Assembly: GCA_965207885.1 (NCBI GenBank)
Contig: OZ242311.1
Span: 4,448,001-4,512,000 of the forward strand
Source of the DNA: Candidatus Latescibacterota bacterium
GTDB taxonomy: Bacteria > Latescibacterota > UBA2968
Reading direction: 5' to 3'
Length of the DNA stretch: 64,000 nucleotides
Shown: in pieces, positions 1,495 to 51,423 of the stretch
Layout of the letters: every line of letters begins with the position of its first letter
How positions within the stretch are numbered: position 1 is the first letter of the stretch
Translations under genes and position numbers: made by a program
The notes under the pieces: model-generated
What the model saw: only the letters and a program-made list of their open reading frames with translations
What the model was told of the DNA's origin: nothing
Database searches by the model: none

Positions 1495-2259
1495 ATGGCA
1501 GATACACTGCGAGAAGTATTGGATTTTGCAACAGATGCCGCCTGGCAAGCCGGACGCATCACACTGCGATATTTCCAGACCGGAGTCGAAGTAGAGGAAA
1601 AGGATGATGAATCACCTGTAACGGCCGCAGACAAAGGAGCCGAAACAAAATTGAGAGAATTGATTGAAGCGCGTTTTCCCGACGACGGCATTGTGGGAGA
1701 AGAGCACGAAGACAAACAAGGCACAACCGGACGACGGTGGATTTTAGACCCCATTGACGGCACAAAATCATTCGTACACGGCGTACCCTTATACGGGGTA
1801 CTGATCGGCGTGGAAGTCGAGGACGAACCCACTGTTGGCGTCGTTCATTTTCCAGCACTAAATGAAATGATTTGTGCTGCTAGTGGATTGGGCTGCACCT
1901 GGAATGGTCGCCCCACACAAGTATCTGACATATCGGATATTCAGGACGCGACCGTGATCTTGACCGATTTTGTGAATGGGCATAGTCGGGGCGAAGCCAT
2001 AAACCGGATTTGCTCACGCGCCAAACTCGTGCGCGGCTGGGGCGATTGTTATGGCCACATGCTCGTCGCAACCGGGCGTGCAGAAATCATGCTCGACCCC
2101 ATTATGAGCGTATGGGACTGCGCCGCCCTCGCGCCCATCCTGAAAGAAGCGGGCGGCACATTCACAACGTGGAGCGGCGAAGCAACCATCTGGGGTAACG
2201 AAGCCGTGGGCACAAACGGAGCGTTGTTCGAAGAAGTAATGCAATTGATAAAAGGGTGA
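1495..2259 (+). CDS. hisN: Histidinol-phosphatase, inositol monophosphatase family
   Basis: SPVTAAD, GEE, WILDPIDGT, RGWGDCYG, WDCAAL motifs; AAGGA upstream of ATG 1495. Confidence 0.8.
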   Translation: MADTLREVLDFATDAAWQAGRITLRYFQTGVEVEEKDDESPVTAADKGAETKLRELIEARFPDDGIVGEEHEDKQGTTGRRWILDPIDGTKSFVHGVPLYGVLIGVEVEDEPTVGVVHFPALNEMICAASGLGCTWNGRPTQVSDISDIQDATVILTDFVNGHSRGEAINRICSRAKLVRGWGDCYGHMLVATGRAEIMLDPIMSVWDCAALAPILKEAGGTFTTWSGEATIWGNEAVGTNGALFEEVMQLIKG

Positions 2260-2263
2260 TCTT

Positions 2264-3463
2264 TTACCCTGCAAATATCGAGCGATTTGATATGCCACAG
2301 ATGTGGTCTTCGCGCATGAATCCGGGCACAAATTGGGCGGTTCGGCCAGAAGGTGCCACGCCTGTATAGTAGCCCGAAAATTGTTCATTAAACGTAGTCA
2401 AACGGTCGCGCGACGCCTCACTACTCTCCGCAGCCACAATGTACGCATTGTTAAAAACCCCATTTTCTTTCAACCCTGCGCCGCCTGCTGCTACGATATG
2501 CCCGTCAATCGTATTGAGAATAGCATCTGCATCATCGCCACCAACACCGCTCACGAGCACCTCGGATATCCCCTGTCGCCGGATGGCAGTCCATGTACTG
2601 AACCCATCCACAATCTCCCCCGAGCGATCAATGGCGACATCGCCGGTAACACAGCGCGGTTGGGGTTCAACAATGCCATCGAGATTGGGAATACGCGAAA
2701 CCGCATAAATTCTACCTGCGGGGCGGTGGTCACCAAAATAATCGGCAATCACTTCGCGCACAGTTTCAATGCGCGTCCAGGTCGCCGAAGGATCGTCATC
2801 AATCGCCACGAGCACCTCGAGATGCGCGGTTTGCGTTTTGAAATCCACATTGTCAGCCGCGAGCTTTTTTTCGTACTGATCTACGAGCACAAATTCCATC
2901 TCTTGTTTGAGATCATTACCGAGTGTCGTAACAGTATTGCCCTCAGTATCGGTGTGCATCACCGACGCGCCACTGGGCTGGTGGTCGGTCCATGCACCGT
3001 ATTCGATCTTCCCATCGCCAAAGGAAATATCCTCGCCCTTAACAGCTTTAATTTCCACCTCAAAAAGCGCTACTGGATCTGGAAACCCTTCTCCATGGGT
3101 AAAACGCGCCATGCGATTGGATTTGAGTTCACAATCCGTCACAGCATCAATCACAGGTCCATATACGGCATTGAACGCATCTCGGTAAGCCTCACAGTCG
3201 TCACGACTATCAGATGGCGTCGTCCACAGGACATCGGTTTTGTACACATCGCCCCAGTTCGCGCCCCCACGCGCAAGCCCCAGACTCAGGTTCTCAATGG
3301 TGCCAAACCACTCTGATCCGAGTTCATTGGGATACTGCGTACCCACATTGCCGCTGGGTTCAACGAGGCGCACGACCTGATCGTCGTTGTATGTCATAAC
3401 GACTTCGGCTGTGCTACAAAAAATGGGAATGGGCTTATGACGGATAATATTGACGCTTGCCAT
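2264..3463 (-). CDS. Protein with three tandem RidA/YjgF-like repeats
   Basis: DVYKTDV..FNAVY..LFEVEIKAV; EVIADYFGDHRPAGRIYAVSRIP..IVE; FNEQFSGYY..APSGRT resemble the RidA fold signature. Confidence 0.55.
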   Translation of the reverse strand: MASVNIIRHKPIPIFCSTAEVVMTYNDDQVVRLVEPSGNVGTQYPNELGSEWFGTIENLSLGLARGGANWGDVYKTDVLWTTPSDSRDDCEAYRDAFNAVYGPVIDAVTDCELKSNRMARFTHGEGFPDPVALFEVEIKAVKGEDISFGDGKIEYGAWTDHQPSGASVMHTDTEGNTVTTLGNDLKQEMEFVLVDQYEKKLAADNVDFKTQTAHLEVLVAIDDDPSATWTRIETVREVIADYFGDHRPAGRIYAVSRIPNLDGIVEPQPRCVTGDVAIDRSGEIVDGFSTWTAIRRQGISEVLVSGVGGDDADAILNTIDGHIVAAGGAGLKENGVFNNAYIVAAESSEASRDRLTTFNEQFSGYYTGVAPSGRTAQFVPGFMREDHICGISNRSIFAG

Positions 3464-3552
3464 AGTGAAAAATCCTTTGTGTTGAGGTTACCAAAAATTC
3501 GGTTTTCTAAAAGATAGAGCCTGAAATACACAATGTCAATGCGCGAGGATGA

Positions 3553-4293
3553 TCAGCGATCTTTGGATTGAAAAAACGCCCGCGCTTCGGCCAGAGATTC
3601 GCGGTTGCCAATATCGAGAACACCGCCTTCAATATCGTACGCATAAACGGTTTCGCATATATGCAACCACTCCAAAAAATGTCCGGGCGCGTCGGGATTG
3701 CCTCCGTTGGCGATATATTCCTTAAAACGGGACAGTATCGATGCCGGGTAAATATAAACGGGTGATGCCGACCACTCGGAAATGGGTCTATCTGGTTTTT
3801 CAATAAATTGCAAAACGCGATTATCTTTATCTAACCGGACATTGCCCCTGCGCTTGCGATCATCGTAATCGGGATTGTGGCGCACGGCAATATGGGAGAC
3901 GGGATTGGATTTGAATATATTGACCAATTTGGAGAGAGAAAACAGCAGAATATTATCCGCAGCGAAAACGAGAACATCATCGGCAATATCGCGCGCTTCA
4001 ATAGCAAAATGGATATCGCCCACAGCCCCCAAACGATTGTCGTTGGAAGTCGTGCCATCGTCGAGTATCTCAGTCTGTATCGCTCTATTTTCACGCGCCC
4101 AGTCGGCAAAGTGCCCGTAAAATCGGCGATTGGTCACCACATAAACACCATCGATATCTGCAATAGCTTTAATCTGTTCAAGCAGGTGATCGAGAATCGT
4201 CTTGCCCCCCACTTTGAGCAGAGGCTTGGGAAAATTTTTTGTAAGAGGATACAGCCGCGTAGCGTATCCCGCCGCGAGAATAATAGCTTTCAC
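3553..4293 (-). CDS. Sugar-1-phosphate nucleotidyltransferase (NTP_transferase)
   Basis: KAIILAAGYATRLYPLT..PKPLL, FIEKP, DIG motifs; GTG start overlaps the upstream TGA (GTGA, 4290-4293). Confidence 0.9.
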   Translation of the reverse strand: MKAIILAAGYATRLYPLTKNFPKPLLKVGGKTILDHLLEQIKAIADIDGVYVVTNRRFYGHFADWARENRAIQTEILDDGTTSNDNRLGAVGDIHFAIEARDIADDVLVFAADNILLFSLSKLVNIFKSNPVSHIAVRHNPDYDDRKRRGNVRLDKDNRVLQFIEKPDRPISEWSASPVYIYPASILSRFKEYIANGGNPDAPGHFLEWLHICETVYAYDIEGGVLDIGNRESLAEARAFFQSKDR

Positions 4294-5471
4294 AGAATCC
4301 TGACTCCATCGTCGGGTTGACAAATAAAGACCGGGGCATTTTTTGACAAATCGGGATATTTGGCGCGATAAGCCGATTGAATCTGTTCAATCGCCGCACT
4401 GGACTTTTGGGGATTCACCAGTGCAACACAACAGCCCCGAAACCCGGCACCACTAAAACGAGCACCGTAAACCCCATCGGTCTCAATGAGAATATGATAG
4501 AGATCAATGAGGGGCTTGCTACCACATTCGTAATTATCAATAGAACTGCGCCCCGATTCGGCGATCAGCCTGCCAAAAGTCATGAGATCGCCGGCACGCC
4601 AGGCATCAATACCCAGACGCACGCGTTCAGATTCCGTAAAAAAATGACTGGCGCGTTTGGCAGACGCACCGCTCAACAGGTTTTTATGCATATCGTATTC
4701 TTCAAAGGCAATATTGCCAAGCAGAGGTTCTCGGTCGGAACGCCCCACGGCATTGAGCAATATTCCCGCAGCACGGGCGCATTCATCTACCCGCGTGTTA
4801 TACCCCGTCGAAACCAGCGCCTCGCGCAAGCCCGATTGGGCAATCAGAATATCAAAGTCTGGCATAGTATTGGACCGGGGAATCAATTCGTGCGTGACAG
4901 AAGCGCAATCGATCACCGTGAGAAATCTCTTTTGCGATAACAGGATAGCCGATTGATCCAGAATGCCATTTTTGAGACCGAGGTAGCCATTTTCAATCGC
5001 CTGATCGAGCCGAATATTATCTGCGGGCGACAGGGACAAATCATTGGCCTCTTCATAAGCGAGCAAATACGCCACACCAATAGCAGCCGATGAACTCAAA
5101 CCCCCTTCGTTCATCCTGCCCGCTGTAAGTCCCATAATCCCGCGCGTGAGTTTATGGCCCTCTTGTTGCAACGCGCGTACTGCGCCGCGCGGAAAATTGC
5201 CCCAATCCCCATCTCTTTTGTCGGGCACATCGCTCAGTGCAAACGAGACCTCACCCTCAAAAGTACGGCTCTGAAGATGCGTATTTCCATCCTCCGATGG
5301 CGCGAAAGCCAGGTACACAGCCTGATCAATAGCCATAGCCGTAACCTGTCCGAGTTGGTGATCAATATGCGCACCGAGAAGACATATCCGATAAGGCGAT
5401 TGCACAACGCGCACATCGGCAGGCGCAACACCAAATCGGCGATTCATTTCAGTTTTGAGTTGATCTATCAT
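4290..5471 (-). CDS. GHMP kinase, plant-type galacturonokinase-like
   Basis: SPYRICLLGAHIDHQ, GLSSSAA, ENGYLGLKNGILDQSAILLS, SSIDNYECG, GARFSGAGFRGCC; closer to plant GalAK as I recall it than to GalK (GRVNLIGEHTDY). Confidence 0.8.
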   Translation of the reverse strand: MIDQLKTEMNRRFGVAPADVRVVQSPYRICLLGAHIDHQLGQVTAMAIDQAVYLAFAPSEDGNTHLQSRTFEGEVSFALSDVPDKRDGDWGNFPRGAVRALQQEGHKLTRGIMGLTAGRMNEGGLSSSAAIGVAYLLAYEEANDLSLSPADNIRLDQAIENGYLGLKNGILDQSAILLSQKRFLTVIDCASVTHELIPRSNTMPDFDILIAQSGLREALVSTGYNTRVDECARAAGILLNAVGRSDREPLLGNIAFEEYDMHKNLLSGASAKRASHFFTESERVRLGIDAWRAGDLMTFGRLIAESGRSSIDNYECGSKPLIDLYHILIETDGVYGARFSGAGFRGCCVALVNPQKSSAAIEQIQSAYRAKYPDLSKNAPVFICQPDDGVRIL

Positions 5472-5472
5472 G

Positions 5473-5507
5473 AGCAGTCAGTAGTCAGTGGTCAGCAGTC
5501 AGCGATC
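5473..5507. repeat. Five tandem degenerate heptamers AGYRRTC
   Basis: agcagtc agtagtc agtggtc agcagtc agcgatc. Confidence 0.8.
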
Positions 5508-5539
5508 AACAACATTACAAAAAAAGGAGAACAACCGCA

Positions 5540-6568
5540 ATGCCACAAATCAAAATAGGCAAAGGTATTGGCGATATTTCAGAGCAAACATTGCGATTTT
5601 ATCGGCAAATTGGGGTCGATGCGGTATCGATACCAACGCGATGGCGCACAGAACCGGGAACGGGCGAACGCAAACTGGTACCGCCAACACAGACGGGGCC
5701 AAAAGGCGCGCAGGGTGGGATATGGGACGAGCGGGAATTGCAACGCATCAAAGCCAGAATCGAATCGTATGATCTAATGCCTCTAATCGCGGGATTGGGT
5801 ATTTCAGGACGCGTATTAATGGGCCAACCGGGTAGAGAAGACGATCTGAAAATTATAAAAACCAATATCGAAATCGCAGGACGGCTGGGACTTCGAGCAT
5901 TGAACTACAGTTTCACAGCCCTCAGAGCATCAGAGGGATATGCGGCGCAGCGAGGTGCGGGACGCGGCGGCGCAGATTTGCGGGATTTTGACAACGAGCG
6001 GATAGCCAATCTCCCTCCCCTCAATTCAATCGGTCGAATTGGAATGGATGAAATGTGGGACAATCTGACCTATTTTTTGGAAAACGCGGTCCCAACAGCA
6101 GAAAAAGCGGATGTACAGTTGGCCGCACACCCCAATGATCCACCGGTTCCAGAATATCGCGGCGTTGCCCAACCCCTGGGCGATATCGAAGGCATGCAAC
6201 GGTTGATCGAAGTGATAGACAGCCCATCAAATTGCATTTTTTACGACACCGGCGTAATGACGGAAAAAGGCGCAGATGCAGTCGAAATGATTCGCTATTT
6301 TGGATCGCGGAATCGCATTGGAACCGTACATTTCCGAAATGTGAAAGTAGAAATACCTCGATTTAAGTATATCGAGACCTTTCACGATGACGGCGAATGC
6401 GATATGTTTGCCTGCGTACAGGCATTTCACGAGGTGGGTTACAACGGCATGATCGACCCCGACCACACGCCGGGCATTCTGGGCGATACACCAGATACGC
6501 GCATTGGCTGGGCGTATGCCATTGGTCAAATGGTAGCGATGCGAAATGCCGTGGAAAAAAACAAATAA
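5540..6568 (+). CDS. uxuA: Mannonate dehydratase (UxuA) family protein
   Basis: LTYFLE..VP.AE..VQLAAHPNDPP, VHFRNV, ETFHDDG..DM, PDHTP, AYAIG; AAGGAG RBS. Confidence 0.8.
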   Translation: MPQIKIGKGIGDISEQTLRFYRQIGVDAVSIPTRWRTEPGTGERKLVPPTQTGPKGAQGGIWDERELQRIKARIESYDLMPLIAGLGISGRVLMGQPGREDDLKIIKTNIEIAGRLGLRALNYSFTALRASEGYAAQRGAGRGGADLRDFDNERIANLPPLNSIGRIGMDEMWDNLTYFLENAVPTAEKADVQLAAHPNDPPVPEYRGVAQPLGDIEGMQRLIEVIDSPSNCIFYDTGVMTEKGADAVEMIRYFGSRNRIGTVHFRNVKVEIPRFKYIETFHDDGECDMFACVQAFHEVGYNGMIDPDHTPGILGDTPDTRIGWAYAIGQMVAMRNAVEKNK

Positions 6569-6600
6569 AAAAAGCCCCAACGCTTTTCAGCGTTGAGGCT
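6567..6600 (-). terminator. Rho-independent terminator for the small minus-strand ORF (hairpin may also act on uxuA)
   Basis: AGCCCCAACGCT-TTTC-AGCGTTGAGGCT hairpin with A7 on its left (U-tract on minus strand). Confidence 0.75.
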
Positions 6601-6619
6601 GTCTGTGATATTGTATGCA

Positions 6620-6745
6620 TTAGAAACTGAGAACACTATAAACCAGAGTAACCGCAAAAATTACGCCTATAATGCCCATAGCGACTTTGAATTGTAAGCT
6701 GATTCTATCCTCTTCCCGGTCGCGCAATTCGTTGAAAGTCTGCAT
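6620..6745 (-). CDS. 41-aa single-pass small membrane protein (absent from the ORF track)
   Basis: MQTFNELRDREEDRISLQFKVAMGIIGVIFAVTLVYSVLSF; AAAGGGGG RBS, upstream TTGACT-16-TATTAT, downstream terminator. Confidence 0.75.
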   Translation of the reverse strand: MQTFNELRDREEDRISLQFKVAMGIIGVIFAVTLVYSVLSF

Positions 6746-6834
6746 GGCTTTCCCCCTTTGAGTAGTGCGGACGGATATGGTCTATATAAATAATACTAAT
6801 TTTTTATATTAAGTCAATAGACAAAATACGACTC

Positions 6835-6863
6835 TTGACAATTCGTGCAGATAAATCTATCGT
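6835..6863 (+). promoter_or_regulatory. sigma70-type promoter for the cytochrome c gene
   Basis: TTGACA-17-TATCGT. Confidence 0.65.
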
Positions 6864-6908
6864 TTGCGATAGACTTTGTATGGATATCATACCCGGAGAG
6901 AAATACCA

Positions 6909-7883
6909 ATGAAGTGGGTGGTCGTGACTGTAACTGTTATAGTGGCACTCGTAATTGTGGGTGCGCTGGGCGTTGCTTACCATCTGAAAACCAATTTTCC
7001 CAAAGCAGATCCGCCTTATAATATTCGCGTGTCGGGAACACCCGAACAGGTCGCGCGGGGACGTTATTTAGCCAATCACGTCACGGTATGTCTCGAATGC
7101 CATTCAACGCGGGATTGGGCGCATTATTCTGCGCCACCGCTGCCGGGCACCGAAGGCAAAGGCGGCGAGATATTTCCGGAAACAGCGGGATTTCCAGGCA
7201 CCTTGATCGCCCCCAATATTACACCGGCAGCTCTGGGAGATTGGACAGACGGCGAAATCATTCGGGCTTTTACCAGCGGCGTAAATAAAAACGGCGATCC
7301 GCTTTTTCCACTGATGCCCTATCGCGCATATCGAAATCTCATGCCAGCAGATATTGACGCCATTGTCGCTTATGTGCGTACCCTATCTCCCATTGACCAT
7401 ATCCCACCGCGGTCCAAATTGAATTTTCCCATGAACCTGCTTGTACGCACAATGCCAGAACCCTATAAACTCCCCAAGCCGTTTGATCGTTCAGATCCCG
7501 TTGCTTATGGCAAGTATTTGGCGACCATTGCCGGATGTGCCACTTGCCATACGCCTCATAATCAACAGAGGCAGCCAGTTGAAGACATGCAATTCGCCGG
7601 AGGATTTCAATTTCGATTGCCCAGTGGCAAAACCGTGCAATCGGCCAATATTACACCCGACATAGAAACGGGAATTGGGCATTGGAAAAAAGAGTACTTC
7701 ATCGGGCGTTTCAGGCAATTTGCCGGGGAAAACGCAAAGCACATTCCATTGCAGGATGGCATGAACAGCGTAATGCCCTGGACCATGTACGCGGGCATGA
7801 CAGACGAAGACTTCAGCGCCATCTACGACTATCTGCAAACCGTCGCGCCAATCCGAAATGCTGTTGAACGGTTTATAGAATAA
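6909..7883 (+). CDS. Membrane-anchored diheme cytochrome c
   Basis: N-terminal TM; CLECH and CATCH; repeated (A/S)xNITP and MP(Y/W) motifs; GGAGAG RBS. Confidence 0.9.
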   Translation: MKWVVVTVTVIVALVIVGALGVAYHLKTNFPKADPPYNIRVSGTPEQVARGRYLANHVTVCLECHSTRDWAHYSAPPLPGTEGKGGEIFPETAGFPGTLIAPNITPAALGDWTDGEIIRAFTSGVNKNGDPLFPLMPYRAYRNLMPADIDAIVAYVRTLSPIDHIPPRSKLNFPMNLLVRTMPEPYKLPKPFDRSDPVAYGKYLATIAGCATCHTPHNQQRQPVEDMQFAGGFQFRLPSGKTVQSANITPDIETGIGHWKKEYFIGRFRQFAGENAKHIPLQDGMNSVMPWTMYAGMTDEDFSAIYDYLQTVAPIRNAVERFIE

Positions 7884-13144: not shown

Positions 13145-14564
13145 TAGGCGTACAAACATGAAACATCTCCCCACATCCACAACGCAATGGGCAATGGTCC
13201 TCCTCCTTCTGTCTTTCGCTATGCCCACCTTTGCACAGAATCACGCCTTTATTCAGGGACAGGTACTCGACGAAACAGATCGTCCAGTAGCCTATGTCAA
13301 CGTACAAATCACGGACACGCTCGACGGCGCAATCACTGATCGCGACGGCCGCTTTGCCTTCTCCACGCAGCACATGGGCAAATGCAAATTGCACGCATCC
13401 TCCATCGGCTATGAACCCGCTCAGCAGACCCTGTATCTAACGCCCGGCGATACCACAACTGTTCGCCTCATCCTGCGCCTCGTCCTCATCCAACTCGACG
13501 AAACCACCGTCACGGCAAGCACCTATACCACTGGGGAAGAGGAAACCGTAACCCTCTCTCCCCTGGATGTCGTGACAACACCTGGCGCTTCTGCCGATAT
13601 ATTCCGCGCATTCAAAACCTTTCCAGGCGTTGCAACCGTCGATGACGGCGCTGGCCTCTTTGTGCGCGGAGGCGACGTAAGCGAAACCGTCATATTGCTC
13701 GGACAAGCTACAGTCGTGCATCCCTACAAATACGAATCGCCCACAGGCGGCGTCTTCGGCACCATCTCTCCCTTTATGGTACAGGGCACCGTCTTCTCCA
13801 CAGGCGGATTTCCCGCGCGCTATGGCAACGCACTCTCCGCAGTCCTGTCCATGGAAACCCAGAACATGCCCGCGCAAAAAAGCTACACACTCAACCTGGG
13901 CCTCGCCGCTGGCTCTCTGGGCCTCAACCTGCCCCTTATGTCCGACAAATTGGGCGTACGCTTCACCGGCAACCTCAGCTTTACTGATCTTCTGTTTCGC
14001 GTCAACCGCCACAGCAGAGCGTTCACCACCACGCCGCGCGGACACGACGGCAACCTCAATTTGATCTACCAGTACTCGCCAACCGGACGCCTCAAATTCT
14101 TCAGCTTCAACGCGAGCGACCGCCTGGGCGTTCGCGTCACAGAACCCTCCTTTGACGGCATTTACAAAGGCAGCACCAACAGCGCATTGCACAACCTCGA
14201 GTGGATGGAGGTATTCGCCAATTGGGTCATGCAGACCAGCGCCTCGCTCAACCACCACACAGCGCGGAAACAACTGGGCAATCTGGATTTCTCGCCCCGC
14301 GACCTGACCCTCAAACTCCGCACAGACATAGAACGCGCCCTCACCACATCTGCGTTCTTGCGCCTGGGCGGCGAAATCGAACACACGGATAATCAATTCG
14401 TGGGCAGTATTCCTCAAGGCGATATATTCGACCCCCAGGCAGAGATATTTGAACTCGATACATCCTACGGTGCCCGGCGCGCGGGTGCCTACTTTGAAAT
14501 CGACTTTGAACCTGCCCGCCGCCTCGTCGTCAATCTCGGCACACGCGCCGACCACCACAATCTA

Positions 14565-15501
14565 GGTAGTGTCTGAAAAGTCGTAAAGTATGTATTTTAG
14601 TTGCAGCATACGCCCTAAACCAAGGAGTATGATATGCAACGGAGATATGAACTGCGCGACGAGGCTTGGCATCTGATCCAAGACCTGTTCCCACCGCCGA
14701 AGAAGATGGGTCGTCCCCGTCGGGATGATCGTACATTATTCAACGGGATCTTCTGGATATTGTGTTCAGGTGCAGCTTGGCGCGACCTGCCAGAACGATA
14801 TGGTCCTTGGCAGACAGCCTTTGACCGATTCTGCAAATGGAAACAGGATGGCACCTTTGATCGCATTGTAGAAAAGCTACATCTCAAATTGGGTGAAGAT
14901 GGTCTTTTAGATTATGCGACCTGGATGATGGATGCAACCCATATTCGAGCCACACAAGCCGCGGCAGGAGCGAAAAAAAAAGGGCAAAAAGGGTGAAGAA
15001 GAGCCCCCAGATCACGCTTTAGGACGCTCTCGTGGCGGTTTGACCACGAAAATCCATCTTCTTTGCGATGCAGTCGGGCATCCTTTAGCAGTGGATCTTC
15101 TCCCTGGTAACCAGTCAGAATCCACACAGGCTGAAAGGCTACTGTCAAAGGTATGCATACCCACCAAACGAGGGCGTCCAAGAAACCGACCCAAGTATCT
15201 GGTAGCTGATAAATCTTATGATGTCTCACGCATCAGAGTCTATCTACGCAAACGGGGTATCAAGGCTGCTATCCCAAACAAGGCGATTCCCAAAGGCAGA
15301 AAACGGCGTAAGAGAGGACCACGGCCTAAGTGTGATAAAAGATTATATGCCAAACGCAATATCGTGGAGCGTCTCTTTGGTTGGCTTAAACACTGCCGAC
15401 GGATTGTGACCCGATTTGAAAAAAAGGCGACTCATTTTCTCACTATGGTCAAGCTGGCCTGTATCAGACAACTCTTCAAAGCTTACTTTTCAGACACTAC
15501 C
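14565..15501 (+). mobile_element. IS5-family insertion sequence, copy 1 (937 bp)
   Basis: 17-bp perfect TIR GGTAGTGTCTGAAAAGT / ACTTTTCAGACACTACC; TA duplication. Confidence 0.95.
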
Positions 15502-15504
15502 TAA
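14634..15504 (+). CDS. IS5-family transposase split into two ORFs (14634-14996 and a +1 frame ending at 15504) at an A9 run
   Basis: WRDLPERYGPWQT, DAT, GRSRGGLTTKIH, ADKSYD, RNIVERLFGWLK. Confidence 0.9.
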
Positions 15505-30213: not shown

Positions 30214-30277
30214 ATTGTACTCCTCCCGTAGATAAAATCAGCCATCAATCTAAGTCCAATGCTCGCTGGAACATCTA

Positions 30278-31214
30278 GGTAGTGTCTGAAAAGTCGTAAA
30301 GTATGTATTTTAGTTGCAGCATACGCCCTAAACCAAGGAGTATGATATGCAACGGAGATATGAACTGCGCGACGAGGCTTGGCATCTGATCCAAGACCTG
30401 TTCCCACCGCCGAAGAAGATGGGTCGTCCCCGTCGGGATGATCGTACATTATTCAACGGGATCTTCTGGATATTGTGTTCAGGTGCAGCTTGGCGCGACC
30501 TGCCAGAACGATATGGTCCTTGGCAGACAGCCTTTGACCGATTCTGCAAATGGAAACAGGATGGCACCTTTGATCGCATTGTAGAAAAGCTACATCTCAA
30601 ATTGGGTGAAGATGGTCTTTTAGATTATGCGACCTGGATGATGGATGCAACCCATATTCGAGCCACACAAGCCGCGGCAGGAGCGAAAAAAAAAGGGCAA
30701 AAAGGGTGAAGAAGAGCCCCCAGATCACGCTTTAGGACGCTCTCGTGGCGGTTTGACCACGAAAATCCATCTTCTTTGCGATGCAGTCGGGCATCCTTTA
30801 GCAGTGGATCTTCTCCCTGGTAACCAGTCAGAATCCACACAGGCTGAAAGGCTACTGTCAAAGGTATGCATACCCACCAAACGAGGGCGTCCAAGAAACC
30901 GACCCAAGTATCTGGTAGCTGATAAATCTTATGATGTCTCACGCATCAGAGTCTATCTACGCAAACGGGGTATCAAGGCTGCTATCCCAAACAAGGCGAT
31001 TCCCAAAGGCAGAAAACGGCGTAAGAGAGGACCACGGCCTAAGTGTGATAAAAGATTATATGCCAAACGCAATATCGTGGAGCGTCTCTTTGGTTGGCTT
31101 AAACACTGCCGACGGATTGTGACCCGATTTGAAAAAAAGGCGACTCATTTTCTCACTATGGTCAAGCTGGCCTGTATCAGACAACTCTTCAAAGCTTACT
31201 TTTCAGACACTACC
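30278..31214 (+). mobile_element. IS5-family insertion sequence, copy 2 (937 bp; ORF translations identical to copy 1)
   Basis: Same TIRs, TA duplication and length. Confidence 0.95.
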
Positions 31215-31217
31215 TAA
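30347..31217 (+). CDS. IS5-family transposase (two ORFs joined at an A9 run)
   Basis: Identical translations to copy 1. Confidence 0.9.
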
Positions 31218-31422: not shown

Positions 31423-34400
31423 CTATTCTCCAAACAGGACGAGCGAAGTGCCCACGGCAGTCTGGATGCCAACGTAGTTCGCCGGTAATGAAGGTGCTGT
31501 TCCCAGACTAACGGTGGTCGATGTTGTCCCGCTCTGCGTCACTGTTATGGGTTCGCTTTGGATATTGCCCTTTGAAATTGTGACTTCTGTGATCGCATTG
31601 CCATCCCCATCGGTCAGTGTGCCGTCTGTTGCCGATAGCTCAACAGTCATATCAAACGGTGCACCCTGAGCAATACTGACCACAACAGTGGCGGGTCCCT
31701 GTGCTGTCAAGTCCGCATTGTCTATGCGTTTCAATTCCAGCGTGAGGGTGAAGGGCGCACCCGTATTATTAGATACATCCAGATTACCCAGATTGGACAA
31801 TCCATAGAACAAACTATCGGGAAGCGTACTCAACGTGTTGTTCTTAAGATTCAAGGTTCGCAGGTTGGACAAATCAGCGAACACCCTGTCGGGTAATTGG
31901 CTCAACTGATTGCGTTCAAGACGCAGGACTTGCAGACTGGTCAGACCAGAGAACACGTTATCTGGCAGTGCGCTCAACTGGTTTCTGTCAAGCTCTAACC
32001 TTTGCAGGTTGGTCAGATCAGAGAACACATTAGCGGGTAGCGCACTCAACTGGTTTCTGTCAAGATTCAGGGTTTGCAGACCGAACAGACCAGAGAAATC
32101 ATTTTCCTGTAAGGTAGTGATACTTTCATTGGTAAAACCAAGAGTTCCTGAGATATTTTCCAGGTGTGAGTCTGTGACCAGAGCACAGTCGGTAATCCCG
32201 GCTATCGCAGACAATATCTCGGTTTGAACAGCCGCTGTGCGGGTACATATCCCTGGCGCGATTTCGGTCATCCCTACTACAGTATCTGACCACCCACTTG
32301 TCCCTTCGTCATTCTCTGCTCTGACCTGTACATCGTAGCTTGTATCTTGACTTAGGCTGCTAATCGTATATTCAAGAGCACCATCACCACTCTCCCACGC
32401 ATCCTCTGCCACCGTCCAGTTGGCATCATCAGTCTCATCCTCACTTGTCAGAATATGACGCACATCATAAGCACTGATCGCTGGTCCTGTATTCGCCGGT
32501 GCTTCCCATTCCACCATCAGACTATTAAAGGTCGAGGATGCCACTGTCGGGGCATCAGGCACGCCGGGAGCCTCACCATCCACATCAGTCAGGGTCACTG
32601 TGAGCGTATCCCTCGCTGTCAAAGCTCGACCACCCGTGCCGCTTGTCGCAGACACGAACACGATATATTCATTATTGCCCGCTGCATTGGCTGGGTCGGT
32701 AACCGCCACATCAGCAGGTGCCTCATAGTTGGGGGCTACCTTGAACGTCAACACACCCGTAGATGCTCCAATGGAGAACTGTGCGCCATCTGCACCAGAC
32801 TCAATGCCATAACGCTCGATATCATCCCCCATATCATCATCCGTCGCACTCACAGTCACAAGCGCTGATGTGGTATTCTCATTCACAGTGATCGGTGAGA
32901 TAGATGTGATCACGGGGGCCACGTTGGTAGTAATTTTGATATCGTCTAATCGGAAAATCGTATCTCCAAAGTCCTCCGTTGTGGTGAATATGATTCCGTC
33001 TACATCTTCCCAGGTGGCATTGCTCCGCCCTAATCTGCTCAGGGGAATGCTAACCTGGTGCCACTGACTGTCCCATGAAGTTATGCCTATATTCTCTTCA
33101 TTGACGCGGTATCCCCTGTTCGAATCCATGTCGAAGCGGACTCTGAACTCGGTTCCTGGGGTATCGCCCCATACCCAGAATTCAAAGACATAGTCGCCAA
33201 CCAGGAAGGACAAGTCGAAGTTCGGGGTAAAATCGAACCTCACAATATCGCTCTTTTTGGCTCCTGACCAGTAAATGCTTTTGTTCCCCACGACCGCCTC
33301 TGTATCATCGTCGAACGTGAGCCATCCCCTGCTATAAAGTTTGCCGGAAATACCCTCTCCGAGGCTATTGAGGCCATCGGTATATATCTCAAAGCCAGCC
33401 TGCTTAGACACGGTCACCCATTCAAGCTGAGGGGGGACGTTCAGCCCGAGTGCCCCGACTATAGAGATATCGAGATTGTAGTCGAAGTGATCATCACCCT
33501 CATTTTCAAATATTTTGAAACCTCCTACGCCGTATTCCCAGAGCGTCCAGGCAATATTGTTGTCTTCCATATAAGTTCGCGCTTCTCGAATCCAGGCTGC
33601 GCGGTCATCTGGGGGGGCATATGGCCCATAGACGCCAAACTCGCCGCACCACACAGGCACGTTGCGATCCTCAGCAAAATCGACAGCGTTCTTGAGCCCA
33701 TTCTGCAATTTCTCTAACGTCCCCTTCGTGTGATAATCTTCAAGGATTTCGGGCACGGGGTCCGGCATGCGGCTGGCATCATACGGCCAGGGCACGCCCC
33801 TGAGATCCTTAAATCTGTCTATCCAGCCAGCCCCCTGGTGCGTAAACTCTCCAGGATTGTAGATATGAAATGTGTAGATAAGGTTATCGTCTGTATATTC
33901 CGGCAGCGTTCTGAGGGCGCCCGAATGGAATTTGCCACCTGTGACCACGATGGTGTGTGTGTTATCATGGGCGCGAATGGTGTCGATAACTGCCTGCTGA
34001 ATCGGATTCCAAATACTGGGTTGGATGTTTGGCTCGTTGAAGACTTCGTACAACACCAGCTTAGAGCGATTTTTATAGCGCTCGGCGATCTGAGGCCAGA
34101 CCTGGACGAGATATTCCCTGGTATCACTCCGGTTATTTTGGTCTGTTTCTTCCGCGGCTAGTTTATGGTTGGTGTGATTGTCGAGGATAATGTAGAGGCC
34201 GAGTTCCTCTGCCCAATCGACTATCTGGTCGAGATAGGTGAAAAAGAGAGGGTCTATGATGTGTGAGGGTCCCCCACTGGTCAGAGGAACAAAGGGCAGT
34301 CGCACAACGTCGCATCCAAGGGTCTTAACGTTCACAAACGTCTGCCGATCATAGGTTATGAAAGGATGCGTCCTGGGACGCTGCATAAACACAGTGAGAT

Positions 34401-37400
34401 TTACGCCGCGACTAAAAGGAGGGAGTCGCCGCTTCGGAGTGGCGGTCGCCTGGTTGGAGACGAGGCTGTTGCCCACGACATTCACAGCGCGGACCTCGAA
34501 GGTATATTCCGTGTCGAAGGTCAGATCCCCTACGGTGTAGGTCGTGGCCGTGCCCCCAGTGGTCGTCCAGTTCGGATCCCACGTTGTACCATCATCGTCG
34601 CTGGCGCGGTATTCGTAGCGCGTGATGGGTGAGCCTCCCTCGTCCGCAGGCGCGATCCAGGACAGTGTTACCAAAAAGCCAGAAGTGGCAATCAGGTCTG
34701 TGGGTGCGCCCGGGACGGTGACCAGTGTTGTCCCACTTACTGAGTCTGACCAATCACTTATGCCTTCATCACTTTCTGCTCGCACCTGCACTTCATAGCT
34801 TGTATTTGGACTTAAACTACCAATCGTGTAGGAAAGATCACCACCATCTGTCTCCCACGCATCCTCAACCACTATCCAGTTGGCATCATCTGTCTCATCC
34901 TCACTGGCCAGAATGTAGCGCACATCGTAAGCTGTGATTTCAGGGCCTGTGTTCTCTGGCGCATTCCATTCCACGGTCAGACTATTAAAGGTCGAAGATG
35001 CTACCGTCGGCACATCAGGTACACCGGGCACTTCTGTGTCTACATCAGTCACTGTCACCGTAATCGTCTGCGTCGCTGTCAGAACACGCGCATCTGCACC
35101 ACTCGTTGCTTCGACAATCACGATGTATTCATTATCACCCGCTCCACTGACAGGGGCTGTGCTGGCCACATCGGTAGGGGCCTCATAATTGGGTGCCACC
35201 TTGAACGTCAACACACCTGTTTGGTCATCAATCTCAAACTGTGATCCATCGGCACCTTCAACAATGCTATAACCCTCTACGTCATCATCGCTATCTGCAT
35301 CAGTCGCACTGACTGTGACAAGGGCACCTGTGCTATTCTCTGCCACGCTGATCGGCGAGATAGTAGCAATCACTGGGGTCACATTCGCACTTGTTGTCCC
35401 ACTCACTGAAGAAGACCAGTCACTCGTGCCTTCGTCACTTTCTGCTCTAACCTGTATATCATAGCTCGTATTCTGGCTCAAGCCGCCTATCAGATATTCG
35501 AGATTGCCATCACCACTCTTCCAGGCCTCTTCCTTCACGGCCCAGTTGGTATCATCTGTCTCATCCTCACTTGTCAGAATATGACGTACATCATAAGCAC
35601 TGATCGCTGGTCCCATGTTCGTAGGCGCTTCCCATTCCACGGTCAGACTATTAAAGGTCGAGGATGCCACTGTCGGGGCATCAGGCACACCAGGGGCCTC
35701 ATCCACATCACTCACTGTCACGGTCAGTGTATCTCTTACCATCAACTCACGCGCATCTGTCCCACTCTTCACCTCCACCACCACGATGTATTCATTATTC
35801 TCTCCTGCATTGTTGTTCGCCGAATTGGATATATCCTCAAACGCTACATCGGTAGGTGCCTCATAGTTGGGAGCCACCTTGAAACTCAACACACCCGTCT
35901 GATCATTGAGATCAAACTGTGCTCCATCACCAACTTCAACGATACCATACTCTATGATGCTATCATTCTCATCTGCATCTGTTGCACTGACTGTGACAAC
36001 ATCACCTGTGCTGTCCTCACTGAATGTAACCGCAGAGACACTCGTGAAGACAGGGGCGACATTAGCTTCGGTTGTCCCTGCTACAGTATCTGACCACCCA
36101 CTTGTTCCTTCATCATTCTTTGCACGCACCTGCACATCATAGCTTGTGTTCTGCACCAAACTGCCAATCGTGTATTCAAGATAGCCGCCATTAACACTCG
36201 TCCATACATCTTCGGTCACTACCCAGTTAGCATCTGCCTTATCCGTTGCACTACTGAGGATGTGGCGCACATCATACGCACTAATCTCAGGACCCGTGTT
36301 CGTCGGCGCTGTCCAACTCACCGTCAAGTTGTTAAACGTTGAAGCAGAGACTGTCGGTGTATCAGGCACTCCAGGAGCTTCGTTCACATCCTCTACAGTC
36401 ACCGTAAGCGTATCCCCTGCTGTCAACGCACGATCACCTGTCCCACTCGTCGCCTCAACAATCACAATGTATTCATTATTCTCTGCTGCATTGGCTGGAT
36501 CGGTAACAGCCACATCTACAGGATCTTCATAGTTCGGCGCTGTATTAAATGTCAATACACCACTCTGATCATCAATCTCAAACTGTGACCCATCTGCATC
36601 ATCAACAATGCCATAACTCTCAATGTCATCATCGGCATCCCTATCTGTTGCACTCACGGTAGCTATATCTGCTGTGCTGTTCTCATTCACACTGAACGCT
36701 GAGGCACTCGTGATGACGGGTGCCTCATTGGCCTGTGTCATCCCCACTACAGCATCAGACCAGTCACCAGTGCCCTCATCACTTTCTGCCCTAACCTGCA
36801 CATCATAGCTTGTATTCTGAGACAGTAAACTGATCGTATACTCAAGACTACCACCATCACTACTCTTCCAAGCATCTTCCTTCACGGTCCAGTTGGCATC
36901 ATCTGTCTCATCCTCACTTGTCAGAATATGACGCACATCATAAGCACTGATCGCTGGTCCCGTGTTCGTAGGCGCTTCCCATTCCACGGTCAGACTGTTA
37001 AAGGTCGAGGATGCCACTGTCGGGGCATCAGGCACACCAGGTGCTTCGTTCACATCACTCACTGTCACGGTCAGTGTATCTCTTACCATTAACTCACGAT
37101 CACCTGTCCCGCTCTTCACTTCCACCACCACGATATACTCATTGTTGCTTGCTGCATTGGATGGATCAGCTACCGCTACATCCTTAGGATCCTCATAGTT
37201 TGGATCCGCTTTGAACGTCAGTACACCACTTTGTTCAGTAAGCGCAAACTGCTCTCCATCTGCTGCATCAACAATCTCATACCCTGTAATACTATCATCG
37301 TCATCGGCATCACTCGCAGTGACTGTGACCAGTGCCCCCGTGCTGTTCTCTGCCACACTGATTGGAGAGATAGTGGCGATGACTGGCGCCACATTCGCTC

Positions 37401-39480: not shown

Positions 39481-39521
39481 ATTACACCTCCTAAAGACAG
39501 ACACCATCCTATCTGTAGTGA

Positions 39522-39835: not shown

Positions 39836-42800
39836 TTACAAACCAGGACGTTCAATACCCAACTTTTTCATTTTGCTGTACAGAGTAGAAGGCGGTAATC
39901 CCAGCAGAATCGCCGCACCCTTTGCTCCTTTTACCCGCCAGTTGGTGTCTTGAAGCACTTCAATGAGATATCGGCGTTCAAATTCCTCCAAAGGCACGAC
40001 TTTGGGATCTTGAGAAACTGGCGACGCATTATCTTCATTGTCAGGAGCTATATGAGAACCATATAGTCCGAGATCTCGCACTTCAGTTTGAGAACCGCGG
40101 CACACGATAACCGCTCGTTGTATGATATGCTCCAGTTCCCGCACATTTCCCGGCCAATAGTAGGTTTGCAACCCCTCTATAACATCTGGCGTCAAGGCAC
40201 CGACTTGCTTTCCCAGATGTGTAGCTATGCGAGTCTTGAAAAATTCGGCCAGACGCGGTATATCCTCCTTGCGCTCGCGCAGGGGGGGGAGAATAATTGG
40301 AAAAACCTGGAAACGATAATACAGATCCTCGCGAAAAGTACCTGCACTGACCATCTCCTGCAGGTCGCGATTGGTCGCTGCCACAATCCGCGCCTGCACC
40401 CTCAGTATCTCGCTACCCCCAACGCGCTCAAAAGTACGCTCTTCCAGCAAACGCAACATCCTGGCCTGCGTTTTCGGAGCCATATCACCAATCTCATCCA
40501 AAAAGAGTGTGCCGCCCTTAGCCAGTTCCACCTTGCCCAGCTTGCGAGACACTGCGCTGGTAAACGCCCCCTTCTCATGACCAAAAAGTTCACTATCGAT
40601 CAGCGTTTCAGGCAGTGCACCGCAGTTGACCTGGATAAAAGGACCATCGCAATGGGGACTCAGCGCGTGTAACACCCGCGCAGCCAATCCCTTACCCACA
40701 CCTGTCTCACCCAGAATCAGCACAGTTATATCAGTGGATGCCACCTCCATGAGTCTGATTTGAAACTGGCGCATAGCTTTGCTCTGCCCGATAAACTCTT
40801 TGCCAACACCATCTGTGTTGTTGAGCACGGAGGTCAGCGCGCTGATGCGCGGATCCATCTCTACTGCAAGTTGCACCTGCGCCATCTCTGAGTAATTGAG
40901 GTCGCGATCTACAGCCCTGACCTGAAAGGTGTAGTCTCCCGGTGGCAGGTCCCGGTAATAGACCCGCATCTCTCGGATCGCTGGCTGCCAGTCGTGGTCA
41001 TAGCCCTTCAAACGATAGACATAGAGCATGTCGCGGGGATGAGTGGAAAAACTCAGGCCTTTATACTCGAAAATCACACTCTGCTCTGTCGTAGATAGGA
41101 CTCTTTCCTCTAAGTTCTCATAGACCTTATCCGCGACGACCTGGAGCAGGCGAACAGTGGGAGGCGTCTGTCGTGGGCGGTAGCGTATTATGGCCTCCCC
41201 AGCAGTGCCAAACCAGAAAGCTCCGTTGCGGTCTTCGAGTATTTGGAAAATTGATCCTATATGCGGTGACTTGATGGTCTGAAAAATCTGACCATCGTAG
41301 TGAGCTACACCCCCGTCCATGCCGAGCCAGAGATCTCCTCGCGAATCCTCAAATAAGCAATGGATGCGGTTGCACGGCAAGCCATCTTCGGTGGTAAAGT
41401 TGCGAAAAACAACACCATCAAAGCAACTGAGACCTCTTTGAGTGGCGATCCACAAATTGCCGTGTCGGTCTTCTAATAAGTCGGTAATCCGGTTATCTAA
41501 CAACCCATCTGCAACAGTATAAAAAGAAATACCGTCTTCTATGTGCCACCGCCCGATACCCTTGCCACTGCCGAAGGGATTGTAGGTGCTCACACTAAAC
41601 CAGAATTCACGGTTGCGCCTGGCGACCAGAGCACTAATGTAGTTGAATTGCTCTTCTTTCTTCTCAAAAACGGTTTGGCACTGCCCATCCCGGTAGTAAA
41701 CGATCTGCAGTGGTCTGGCAAACATCTCTTCTGTTTTTTTTCTAAGACCATTTTCCCACTGTCCAAAAATAAGTTGTCCATCCCGGCTCTCGGCGATTGC
41801 GCTGACACCCACTTCACCAGTACCTACGGCAATGTCCATTTTTTGAAAGGCCTGCCCATCGTAGCGAAACAGACCGTTATCCCCTCCAAACCACAGGTGT
41901 CCATCGCGGTCCTCGTAGATGGCGGAACAACTATTGAGATCAAGACCTTGTTCTGCTCCAACAAATTCAAAGTGCTCGCCATCGAAGCGCGCCAGGCTTT
42001 TGGTTGCGGGGCACAGAAAAGGCTCGGAAAATCCGATCCATATATCTCCCTGTCGATCCTGCAACATCCGTGATATTCTACTATCATCTTCGGGAAAATT
42101 CGTACCAAAATCGAAAATACTGATACTATACGCATCGTATAGTCCTAAACCGCCGCCCCATGTGGCGAACCAGAACTGATACTCGCGATCCTGAAATACG
42201 GCGTTGACAACGGGATGGGGCAGGCCATCGACAAGGGTAAACCTGCCGAATCCATCACCATTCCAGTAGAGGACCCCTGTCGAGGTACAGAACCACATCC
42301 GACCTTCGCGGTCACACTGAATTTTGCGTAACTCACCACCCAAATTCACCTCAACAGACTGAAAGGCACCATCGGCATAGCACCACAGTCCATCTCTGCG
42401 CTGCGATCGACCAATCCACACCTTGCCAGTATGATCCTTGCCCACAGTATAGCTACTCTGGTCTGGTGGAAAACCCTCTTTCTCGTCGTATCGATAAAAG
42501 GATTCTCCATCGAAGCGGATGAGGTAGTCAAAGCCAAACCACAGGTGGCCTTCCATATCCTGGGTGATGCCCCAACACTGATTGGTCCACTCAGGAGAAG
42601 GCGGCTGCTCATAGTGCTGTAGATAGAGCGGAATCAGGTCGTGGAAAGCTGTGCCCTCGTAATACCCCAGAGTACTGATACCACCAAACCATATACGGCC
42701 CTTATTATCTTCGTAGATGAATAACACGGATCGGTCTGCGATCCCATCGTCCTCCAAATGATGGAAATTTATCCCATCGTACCAGCAGACCCCATTCATT

Positions 42801-43045
42801 GTACCGAACCATAGCCGCTTCTGACTATCCAAATGGATGGCAAAAACTCGATCGCTACACAAACCTTCCTGCTCGGTAAACGTCTCGAACTTGTCCCCAT
42901 CAAAGCGGCTAACACCACTATCCCAGGTAGCAATCCAGAGGCAACCCTCGCTGTCTTCTGCGATATGTTCGGTGCGCACCCCAGCCAGACCATTGGCAAG
43001 GGAATAAGTCCGCCAGGTGCCCTTTCTGTCGAGTGACTCGATCAT
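39836..43045 (-). CDS. sigma54-dependent activator with N-terminal beta-propeller (Reg_prop) and YYY domains
   Basis: ED..G.LW..T..G repeats; [23 protein letters not shown]; [29 protein letters not shown]-terminal HTH. Confidence 0.92.
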
Positions 43046-46663: not shown

Positions 46664-46861
46664 AAAAAAGAAACCTTGCGATATTGGTAAAAGAAAACCG
46701 GATAGATTCAACTCTTTCAAGACAGACCAAACTCTTTTGCTGCAAAAAAAATTTGTGTAATATATGTGCTAATGTGAATTTATTCAAGCAATTATATGTT
46801 ATAAGATATTATTTTTTATGGGGCATAATGGATCGCGCATCGCCTACATTCATATCCATCG

Positions 46862-50775: not shown

Positions 50776-50812
50776 AAAAGATAGCTTTCATCCGTTCTTA
50801 CACTCTTCAAAC

Positions 50813-51409: not shown

Positions 51410-51423
51410 AAAAAAAACCCTCG

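Follow-up and report, generated by a model that had tools for sequence, protein, structure and literature searches.

Textbooks describe bacteria as only degrading D-galacturonic acid (GalA), by isomerase or oxidative pathways. A 64,000-nucleotide (nt) stretch of the genome of a Candidatus Latescibacterota bacterium (assembly GCA_965207885.1, contig OZ242311.1, positions 4,448,001 to 4,512,000; the whole stretch is called the window here) raises the question of whether some bacteria also activate this sugar for building glycans. The locus in question is an overlapping pair of minus-strand genes encoding a 393-amino-acid (aa) GHMP kinase and a 246-aa sugar-1-phosphate nucleotidyltransferase, hereafter the transferase. 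We consider it probable that the pair is a salvage module leading from GalA through GalA-1-phosphate (GalA-1-P) to UDP-galacturonic acid (UDP-GalA) for glycan synthesis. The kinase would phosphorylate free D-galacturonic acid at C1 with ATP, giving alpha-GalA-1-P, and the transferase would convert GalA-1-P and UTP to UDP-GalA and pyrophosphate. UDP-GalA would then supply glycosyltransferases for the synthesis of exopolysaccharide (EPS), capsule, or lipopolysaccharide (LPS), or be interconverted with UDP-glucuronic acid (UDP-GlcA) by a separate 4-epimerase-like enzyme of the genome. Family membership, the residues of the clade, the conserved adjacency and overlap of the two genes, and their fusions and neighborhoods with UDP-uronate enzymes are read directly from the sequences, and from these we infer that the sugar is GalA and the nucleotide UTP, and likewise in which direction flux runs and where the product goes.

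The kinase and the galacturonokinase family

The kinase gene (positions 4290..5471, minus strand) starts with ATG at 5471, and its product, a predicted D-galacturonate 1-kinase, matches three Pfam domains above their cut-offs, namely, GalKase_gal_bdg (PF10509, 46.7 bits), GHMP_kinases_N (PF00288, 37.6 bits), and GHMP_kinases_C (PF08544, 37.4 bits). The first-pass annotation, made without database searches, took it for a plant-type galacturonokinase (GalAK) by four motifs, all of which are present in the 393-aa translation: PYRICLLGAHIDHQ (residues 26-39), IENGYLGLKNGILDQSAILLS (residues 159-179), SSIDNYECG (residues 309-317), and GARFSGAGFRGCC (residues 336-348). Relatives of the kinase number 3541 at E <= 0.001 among 7999 scored candidates, and a search of 1.84 billion protein cluster representatives, the 150 best of which were listed, returned 9640 matches at the same threshold. 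The kinase shares 50% identity with the galacturonokinase of Camellia sinensis (P0125), 53% with a protein of the streptophyte alga Spirogloea (P0123), and 43% with one of Micromonas (P0193), and a Tetracentron protein named galacturonokinase (P0137) is among its best matches. The nearest solved structures are galactokinases, with 1pie (Lactococcus GalK) first at 8.6e-42. Nevertheless, all five NCBIfam GalK models are missed, with scores of 224.1, 196.2, 188.9, 181, and 150.5 against cut-offs of 385, 226.65, 443, 499, and 509, respectively. A second GalK-like gene in the host genome, whose product is 34% identical to the kinase, clears two cut-offs (428.2 against 385 and 376.5 against 226.65) and lies directly downstream of an open reading frame (ORF) in which a GalE-like C-terminus comes before the GalT domains. 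With this second GalK, which passes those two cut-offs and adjoins GalT, the genome's Leloir kinase is already assigned to another locus. That upstream ORF is an observation in its own right: at ~3.656-3.660 Mb of the host contig (L002 2655-4088, minus strand, open at the locus end), it joins a GalE-like C-terminus, with a GDP_Man_Dehyd/epimerase match over residues 3-125, to both GalT domains and may encode a GalE-GalT fusion protein.

For the comparison of residues, 101 of the 150 listed representatives (340-520 aa; 49 fragments or longer proteins were dropped) were aligned with the window kinase and the genome's GalK, giving 103 rows, of which 85 carry G[A/S]HxDH[Q/N] and are GalAK-like, 9 are GalK-like, and 9, excluded from the comparison, fit neither group. 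The two groups have different fixed residues at seven positions (GalAK-like/GalK), A34/E, H38/Y, Q39/N, V228/R, S310/L, G317/S, and P373/G, where fixed means present in >=85% of the 85 GalAK-like representatives and differing from the 9 GalK rows, and the window kinase carries the GalAK-like residue at all seven. The clade motif GAHxDHQ takes the place of GEHTDYN in GalK. In the alignment to 1pie, the Glu of GEHTDY corresponds to the Ala of GAHIDH in the window kinase, and the same Glu is Ala in 84 of the 85 GalAK-like representatives. This Glu presumably contacts the 6-hydroxyl of galactose in GalK structures, and its loss would free space for a carboxylate. R28, D37, and D172 are common to the GalAK-like proteins and GalK, and the window kinase also keeps Y224; we take these four to be galactose-binding residues in GalK, with R28 and D172 as the catalytic Arg and Asp. 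Three positions vary across the 85 GalAK-like representatives, 224 (Y in 52, F in 30), 337 (A in 44, S in 20), and 345 (R in 39, G in 30), and here the window kinase has Y, A, and R, the same as the four Viridiplantae sequences. The window, Camellia, Spirogloea, and Micromonas proteins agree at positions 28, 34, 37, 38, 39, 172, 224, 337, and 345.

A quick maximum-likelihood tree (LG+C20+F+G4), with supports from the Shimodaira-Hasegawa-like approximate likelihood ratio test (SH-aLRT) only, was built from 62 rows, comprising the window kinase, 37 of the best 80 loci from a scan of one genome per species, hand-picked across phyla, 4 named eukaryotes, 13 unnamed representatives, and 7 GalK sequences as the outgroup. 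The window kinase falls with the 4 named Viridiplantae rows in a 55-row GalAK-like clade, which is separated from GalK with an SH-aLRT of 100. These comparisons place this bacterial kinase in the plant GalAK family, with 1-phosphorylation of GalA as its predicted activity, and the first-pass assignment to a plant-type GalAK is borne out by the 50-53% identity to streptophyte sequences, the clade, and its residues; the protein does not group with ordinary GalK, whose cut-offs it misses and from which the tree splits it.

The first-pass annotation also held that the locus bears on the origin of the plant enzyme. In the free tree, a eukaryotic clade of 7 rows (support of 99) is nested in a 27-row clade (support of 96) with Verrucomicrobiota, Planctomycetota, Latescibacterota, Sumerlaeota, and Gemmatimonadota, while Bacteroidota/Bacillota, Chloroflexota, and Calditrichota/KSB1 fall outside it. 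However, an approximately unbiased (AU) test did not reject bacterial monophyly with the 48 bacterial rows held together (delta lnL of 9.66, p = 0.349), and the claim that plant GalAK is demonstrably nested in bacteria was dropped. The tree hints at a bacterial origin of plant GalAK and does not establish it.

The transferase and its ties to UDP-uronate enzymes

The transferase gene (positions 3553..4293, minus strand) is predicted to encode a UTP:galacturonate-1-phosphate uridylyltransferase. It opens with GTG at 4293, and the GTGA overlap with the kinase gene (positions 4290..4293, minus strand), reported in the first-pass annotation, was confirmed directly from the sequence. The kinase TGA (4292-4290) shares bases with the GTG (4293-4291) that opens MKAIILAAG... 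in the context ctGTGAaa, a GGAG lies 10 nt upstream of this GTG, and the N-terminus of the product, LAAGYATRLYPLT, contains a G-x-G-T-R-like loop. Because most of the 120 listed transferase relatives are 244-256 aa long, the GTG start and the 246-aa product are favored over a TTG start at 4323. An identical 4-nt overlap (gap of -3) occurs in at least 10 other kinase/transferase loci, which suggests translational coupling of the two genes. Contigs from sponge metatranscriptomes (two libraries from one study) cover parts of the region, mostly at 95-99% identity, and two of them (4116-4580 and 4218-4463) span the kinase/transferase junction. This bridging is a weak hint of cotranscription and expression, given that the libraries may contain DNA and that a contig is not a single transcript.

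The transferase matches Pfam NTP_transferase (PF00483) at 1.9e-28 and 100.2 bits over profile positions 1-243 of 245. It scores under the cut-off of all 25 best NCBIfam models shown (38 matched), including RmlA, GalU, GlmU, MurU, and ManC; the top scores are 70 against 400 for AglF and 68.9 against 320.25 for rmlA_long, and the MurU model gives 44.1 bits against a cut-off of 250. The nearest solved relative is 3hl3 (4e-12). Database names for the family are generic only, and the JGI label is glucose-1-phosphate thymidylyltransferase. We propose that the transferase is a UDP-uronate pyrophosphorylase, a prediction based on fusions of its family to 4-epimerase-like short-chain dehydrogenases/reductases (SDRs) and to Ugd and on the gene neighborhoods.

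The scan of one genome per species gave at least 600 stretches, at least 576 of which encode a kinase relative, in species of 11 named phyla; neighborhoods were counted in the best 80 of these loci. The 80 loci come from Latescibacterota, Planctomycetota, Verrucomicrobiota, Sumerlaeota, Calditrichota, KSB1, Gemmatimonadota, Chloroflexota, Armatimonadota, Bacteroidota (including Prevotella, Bacteroides, and Alistipes), and Bacillota, and they include one Pseudomonadales metagenome-assembled genome. In 45 of the 80, the kinase gene has a transferase ortholog next to it (E <= 1e-40, within 1.3 kb on the same strand), with 21/25 in Bacteroidota, 9/11 in Bacillota, 5/5 in Latescibacterota, 3/6 in Verrucomicrobiota, one locus each in Calditrichota, Armatimonadota, Pseudomonadota, and Chloroflexota, and 3 loci without a phylum. 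Four Chloroflexota loci have a different NTP_transferase with an LbH tail in its place, three further Anaerolineae loci (L025-L027) fell into the transferase cluster by single linkage only, and 7 of the 80 loci are too short to show a transferase. Synteny in relatives, which the first-pass annotation had named as a check, extends across phyla, and this recurrence, like the 3541 relatives of the kinase, speaks against a chance observation. Within a sample of 81 Latescibacterota genomes (kinase counted at E <= 1e-80 and transferase at 1e-40), the kinase is present in 26, including 22/23 in the window's own family and 3/15 in a second family (f3), and was found in none of the other families sampled. 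The transferase is present in 34 of the 81, and in all 23 genomes that have both genes, the window's included, the two are adjacent.

The neighborhoods tie the pair to UDP-uronate metabolism. Among 539 clustered neighbor ORFs (<=4 genes on either side of the kinase gene, 80 loci), a NAD-dependent SDR resembling UDP-GlcA 4-epimerase has 31 copies in 25 of the 80 loci, always on the strand of the kinase gene; Ugd (UDP-glucose/GDP-mannose dehydrogenase family) is near the kinase gene in 10, and one or the other is present in 27. The nearest solved relatives of the SDR are 5u4q (7e-111), named dTDP-glucose 4,6-dehydratase by its depositors, followed by the UDP-glucuronate 4-epimerase of Bacillus cereus (6zl6 and 6zlj), which is the subject of a published study (PMC7984243), and MoeE5. 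The representative of the Ugd family scores 549.2 on the UDP-glucose 6-dehydrogenase model (cut-off of 757) and passes the nucleotide-sugar dehydrogenase subfamily model. Some of these SDR/Ugd loci also carry NusG/UpxY-like, Wzz/tyrosine-kinase, or WecG genes and are therefore capsule or EPS loci.

Fusions point in the same direction. Among 103 transferase relatives longer than 431 aa, surveyed at the protein level by local BLAST and precomputed Pfam, 45 join the transferase to an SDR (42 at 43-57% identity to the Bacteroidales SDR and 3 at ~25%), two of which are named UDP-glucuronate 4-epimerase by JGI. Twelve clusters join a GalAK-type kinase with the GAHVDHQ motif to the transferase (including P0188, P0415-P0421, P0424, P0425, and P0432); these proteins are ~570 aa long (one 527 and one 546), and their kinase part ends near residue 307, lacking the GHMP C-terminal domain and the glycine-rich motif, so that they could be a genuine variant or a decayed gene and their activity is doubtful. 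One fusion in reverse order has a distant kinase. By precomputed Pfam, at least 4 fusions are to Ugd (P0450, P0454, P0465, and P0497), 3 are to WecG, and P0412, P0436, and P0458 are fused to aldose 1-epimerase (mutarotase, PF01263), which would fit the supply of the alpha-anomer to an anomeric kinase. Of the remaining 45 long relatives, each a single hit, some resemble chance chimeras with unrelated enzymes. The transferase domain also occurs N-terminally, with a GHMP kinase behind it, in red-algal and other eukaryotic proteins named glucuronokinase (31% identity and E of 5.7e-19 in Galdieria; 30% in Gracilariopsis), an arrangement also reported for zebrafish DrGKUP (PMC3938481). At the level of sequence, these neighborhoods and fusions link both the kinase and the transferase families to UDP-uronate enzymes, and with the 45/80 adjacency and the fusions to epimerase-like proteins, Ugd, and GHMP kinases, the second step of the two-gene route from GalA to an NDP-GalA, which the first-pass annotation had suggested, gains backing.

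Possible other substrates and fates, and the setting of the pair

Several points weigh against the proposed salvage module. No assay of a bacterial member of the kinase or transferase family was found in the literature searched, and the plant comparator sequences are named by homology to the Arabidopsis enzyme. Zebrafish DrUP, the sole studied homolog of the transferase domain, reportedly gave trace UDP-GlcA after 70 h (PMC3938481), and because only a trace appeared after this time, DrUP is not a firm biochemical anchor. The variation at positions 224, 337, and 345 may mean that sugar specificity differs between family members, and a sugar without a 6-hydroxyl would be just as compatible with the loss of the Glu. 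In the window, the pair has no gene for a glycosyltransferase, an epimerase, or Ugd next to it, and the neighbors are polysaccharide-degradation genes, including a sulfatase fragment and a glucuronyl-esterase-like hydrolase, with a HisN/IMPase-family phosphatase also nearby. Pairing is incomplete as well, since 24 of the 80 loci, 11 of the 12 Planctomycetota loci among them, have room for a transferase and no adjacent copy, while family f3, with the kinase in 3 of its 15 genomes, has no transferase at 1e-40 and another family (f2) has the transferase in 5/6 genomes and no GalAK-type kinase. Five genomes from among these 24 loci were searched whole: two, both Pirellulaceae, encode a copy of 38-39% identity at another site, a third yielded nothing better than a 27% match, and the other two gave no match at E <= 1e-10. 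In seven transferase-less Planctomycetota and Verrucomicrobiota loci (L006, L007, L011, L014, L016, L021, and L022), the kinase gene adjoins a gene for a ~390-aa protein (for example, L007:7194-8366). This protein was considered as an alternative transferase and rejected, since neither Pfam nor PDB gave a match; in ESM Atlas its neighbors are Gfo/Idh/MocA-like oxidoreductases, which is a lead only, and the sugar phosphate may have a different fate in these loci. Across the sampled genomes, then, the partnership of kinase and transferase is frequent and ancient-looking and is not obligate.

The same two-step architecture could act on another substrate, such as glucuronic acid (GlcA), both uronates, or a galacto sugar without a 6-hydroxyl (L-arabinose or D-fucose), to give the matching NDP-sugar, possibly not with UTP. 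We regard this as unlikely, while giving it real weight. Kinase specificity is a prediction, and the family varies at the three positions just named; a Glu-to-Ala change at a residue that contacts O6 would also fit 6-deoxy sugars or pentoses; a linked 4-epimerase-like enzyme would interchange UDP-GlcA and UDP-GalA, so that the neighborhoods cannot separate the two uronates; and the JGI label of the transferase is that of a thymidylyltransferase. On the other hand, the window kinase has the plant state at 224, 337, and 345 and is 50-53% identical to streptophyte GalAK. The option of a glucuronokinase (GlcAK) is further opposed by BLASTP, which at E <= 1e-5 matched the window kinase to none of the kinase parts in fusions P0504-P0509, named glucuronokinase; characterized glucuronokinases are reported to belong to a different GHMP family with almost no identity to GalAK (PMC2823444). 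For arabinose or fucose, the linkage observed is to Ugd and 4-epimerase-like genes and not to arabinose or fucose genes.

A catabolic or interconverting entry, in which GalA is taken in as UDP-GalA and passed through UDP-GlcA to, for example, UDP-xylose, like a Leloir pathway for uronates, appears quite improbable, although the host offers some support for it. The host genome is a single contig of 6.23 Mb (97% complete, 5% contamination), and no UxaC was found in it by a search whose control was positive in 7/14 named genomes. The genome encodes a 4-epimerase homolog, a 341-aa SDR at ~183 kb that is 52% identical to the Bacteroidales epimerase-like protein (5u4q, 7.1e-129), and two nucleotide-sugar dehydrogenases; the first of these has a UDP-GlcNAc 2-epimerase as its neighbor, the second a UXS/ArnA-like SDR. 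Both dehydrogenases fall under all equivalog cut-offs, and a clear UDP-glucose 6-dehydrogenase was sought and rejected, the only two matches to the Bacteroidales Ugd query being weak (26% identity) and nearer in score to models of UDP-ManNAc dehydrogenase; de novo UDP-GlcA synthesis in the host is possible. The window is also rich in polysaccharide-degradation genes, with pectate-lyase-like beta-helix proteins and a giant GH5 protein further along, a gene set that suits an organism freeing uronic acids from polysaccharides. Against such an entry, other phyla have the pair among Ugd, UpxY, and Wzz genes in capsule or EPS loci, which points to biosynthesis, and no route leading back from UDP-GlcA or UDP-xylose to central carbon metabolism is known. 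An ordinary galactokinase paralog beside an unrelated nucleotidyltransferase, to which the generic GalK/GHMP Pfam domains, the nearest structures (1pie), and the NCBI name of some homologs, galactokinase family protein, might lead, is scarcely tenable and was ruled out by the five missed NCBIfam cut-offs, the SH-aLRT 100 split, the genome's separate GalK, and the seven fixed differences, while the 45/80 adjacency, the 4-nt overlap, and the 12 kinase-transferase fusion clusters speak against a chance neighbor.

A glucuronyl-esterase-like/Abhydrolase_7 hydrolase gene is found near the kinase gene twice, at 423-1469 of the window (minus strand) and in a Eubacteriales locus (L048:9102-10130), which hints at a recurring tie between the kinase and uronic acid release. 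Upstream, a 68-bp divergent intergenic region (5472..5539), presumed to hold the promoter, separates the kinase gene from a plus-strand gene (5540..6568) for a 342-aa UxuA-family/xylose-isomerase-like TIM-barrel protein. No consensus sigma-70 site was reported in 5472..5539, and promoter and terminator scans of 2000-7000 gave site counts no higher than those in shuffled sequence. The divergent gene had been called a UxuA-family dehydratase gene in the first-pass annotation. The family holds, with Pfam UxuA at 154.9 bits (cut-off of 23.7; 3.2e-45) over profile positions 113-333 of 352 only; on the NCBIfam mannonate dehydratase models the protein scores 119.3 and 90.5, under the cut-offs of 191 and 199.55. 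A functional tie of this gene to the pair found no support, as it adjoins the kinase gene only in L003, L004, and L020 of the 80 loci, all close Latescibacterota, and its membership in the module is likewise unsupported.

Downstream of the transferase gene by 89 nt and on the same strand lies a gene for a 399-aa protein (2264..3463, minus strand), which is possibly cotranscribed with the pair; an RNA-library contig (2995-3965) spans its junction with the transferase gene. The protein matched no Pfam or NCBIfam family, gives a faint RidA/L-PSP signal (E of 0.0096), and has Latescibacterota hypothetical proteins as its ESM Atlas neighbors. Its homologs occur in 5 of the 80 loci by BLAST, and the gene map places them downstream of the pair in L003, L004, L005, and L020. 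The possibility that it is a conserved companion of the transferase where the kinase is lacking was rejected, the candidates in L095 and L096 being nonhomologous (best BLASTP E of 0.038 and 0.74, with crude ORF picking). The same stretch of DNA is present in sponge and marine metagenomes, according to run records.

Elsewhere in the window, two insertion sequence (IS) copies (14560-15504 and 30273-31217), with DUF4096 and DDE_Tnp_1 ORFs of identical Pfam scores, are 100% identical over the 300 nt compared, lie in direct orientation 15,713 nt apart, and bracket genes for a MacB-like permease, a PIN protein, an oxidoreductase, an amidohydrolase, and pectate-lyase-like proteins. The giant GH5 protein (31423-39507, minus strand) has 2694 aa with a GH5 cellulase domain, 8 FN3 domains, a cadherin domain, a Rha78A-like Ig domain, and leucine-rich repeats. 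At 39836-43045 and 43445-46720 (minus strand) are two tandem sigma-54 activators of ~1070-1090 aa with Reg_prop beta-propeller and Y_Y_Y sensor domains, which resemble hybrid polysaccharide sensors. At 49102-52644 (minus strand), genes for a HerA-like helicase (DUF87, HAS barrel) and a NurA nuclease enclose a 198-aa Pfam-less ORF, and further short Pfam-less ORFs flank this block on both sides.

Implications and comparison with known systems

The kinase is less new than the first-pass annotation supposed, since 24 of its 120 best homologs are already galacturonokinase in JGI naming, one of them also in NCBI, and 2 are galactokinase in JGI. In the full-text literature available to the search, which left most subscription journals outside, galacturonokinase or its synonyms appear only with plants or in citations of the plant enzyme, and no description of the partner transferase or its fusions was found in the literature searched. 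The salvage logic and the kinase family are therefore known, whereas the partner is apparently undescribed and the domain of life, bacteria, would be new. If the proposal is correct, bacteria would have a shortcut from GalA to UDP-GalA that needs neither UDP-glucose dehydrogenase nor the 4-epimerase and lies outside the textbook picture. Bacteroidales and Clostridia of the gut and rumen carry the pair within capsule or EPS loci, and there dietary pectin could enter surface glycans directly; for fucose, such direct incorporation into surface glycans is known. The pair would also be a matched bacterial kinase and pyrophosphorylase for making UDP-GalA, a synthesis for which the instability of the plant kinase is reported to be a practical bottleneck (PMC7984243). 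The large, generically named transferase family gains a testable function, and the origin of plant GalAK becomes a question resolvable with better sampling. A broader scenario is that this module, a GalAK-type kinase with a small uridylyltransferase, is widespread in the 11 sampled phyla and makes glycans from scavenged GalA in pectin-exposed gut and rumen Bacteroidales and Clostridia and in sponge-associated Latescibacterota, and that it was the source of two eukaryotic parts, plant GalAK and the pyrophosphorylase domain that algae and lower animals carry in fusion with glucuronokinase. We offer this scenario tentatively, as possible but doubtful in its full extent.

The closest known system is the plant route, in which GalAK, encoded by the single gene At3g10700, is followed by the UDP-sugar pyrophosphorylase USP/SLOPPY (PMC8636097). 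The window kinase shares with it the family, the clade, and the diagnostic residues, and the predicted pathway has the same salvage logic from GalA through GalA-1-P to UDP-GalA. The second step differs, in that plant USP is promiscuous and belongs to another enzyme family, whereas the window encodes a 246-aa RmlA/GalU-fold protein (PF00483) in the same operon, with apparently translationally coupled genes and in a bacterial host. Leloir GalK is likewise related, with the GHMP fold, the GalK N-terminal signature, and R28 and D172 all kept in the window kinase, but the latter has Ala34 for Glu, HQ for YN, and further fixed differences, and its partner is a putative pyrophosphorylase and not GalT.

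Zebrafish DrGKUP is a fusion of glucuronokinase with a putative UDP-GlcA pyrophosphorylase, and its published description lists bacterial relatives in Ruminococcus, Prevotella, Alistipes, Butyrivibrio, Verrucomicrobium, and others (PMC3938481). Its N-terminal domain is homologous to the transferase family, it follows the same logic of a uronate kinase with a pyrophosphorylase, and the listed bacterial taxa overlap those of the pair; in contrast, its kinase is of the GlcAK type, an unrelated GHMP family, its parts are fused, and its pyrophosphorylase activity is barely detectable. Among bacterial salvage pairs of an anomeric kinase and a nucleotidyltransferase, AmgK-MurU makes UDP-MurNAc and Fkp of Bacteroides makes GDP-fucose; AmgK is not known to be a GHMP kinase. 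Like the pair proposed here, these systems convert a free sugar to an NDP-sugar for surface glycans in two steps, but they handle other sugars with other kinase families and transferase subfamilies, whose equivalog cut-offs the window transferase misses.

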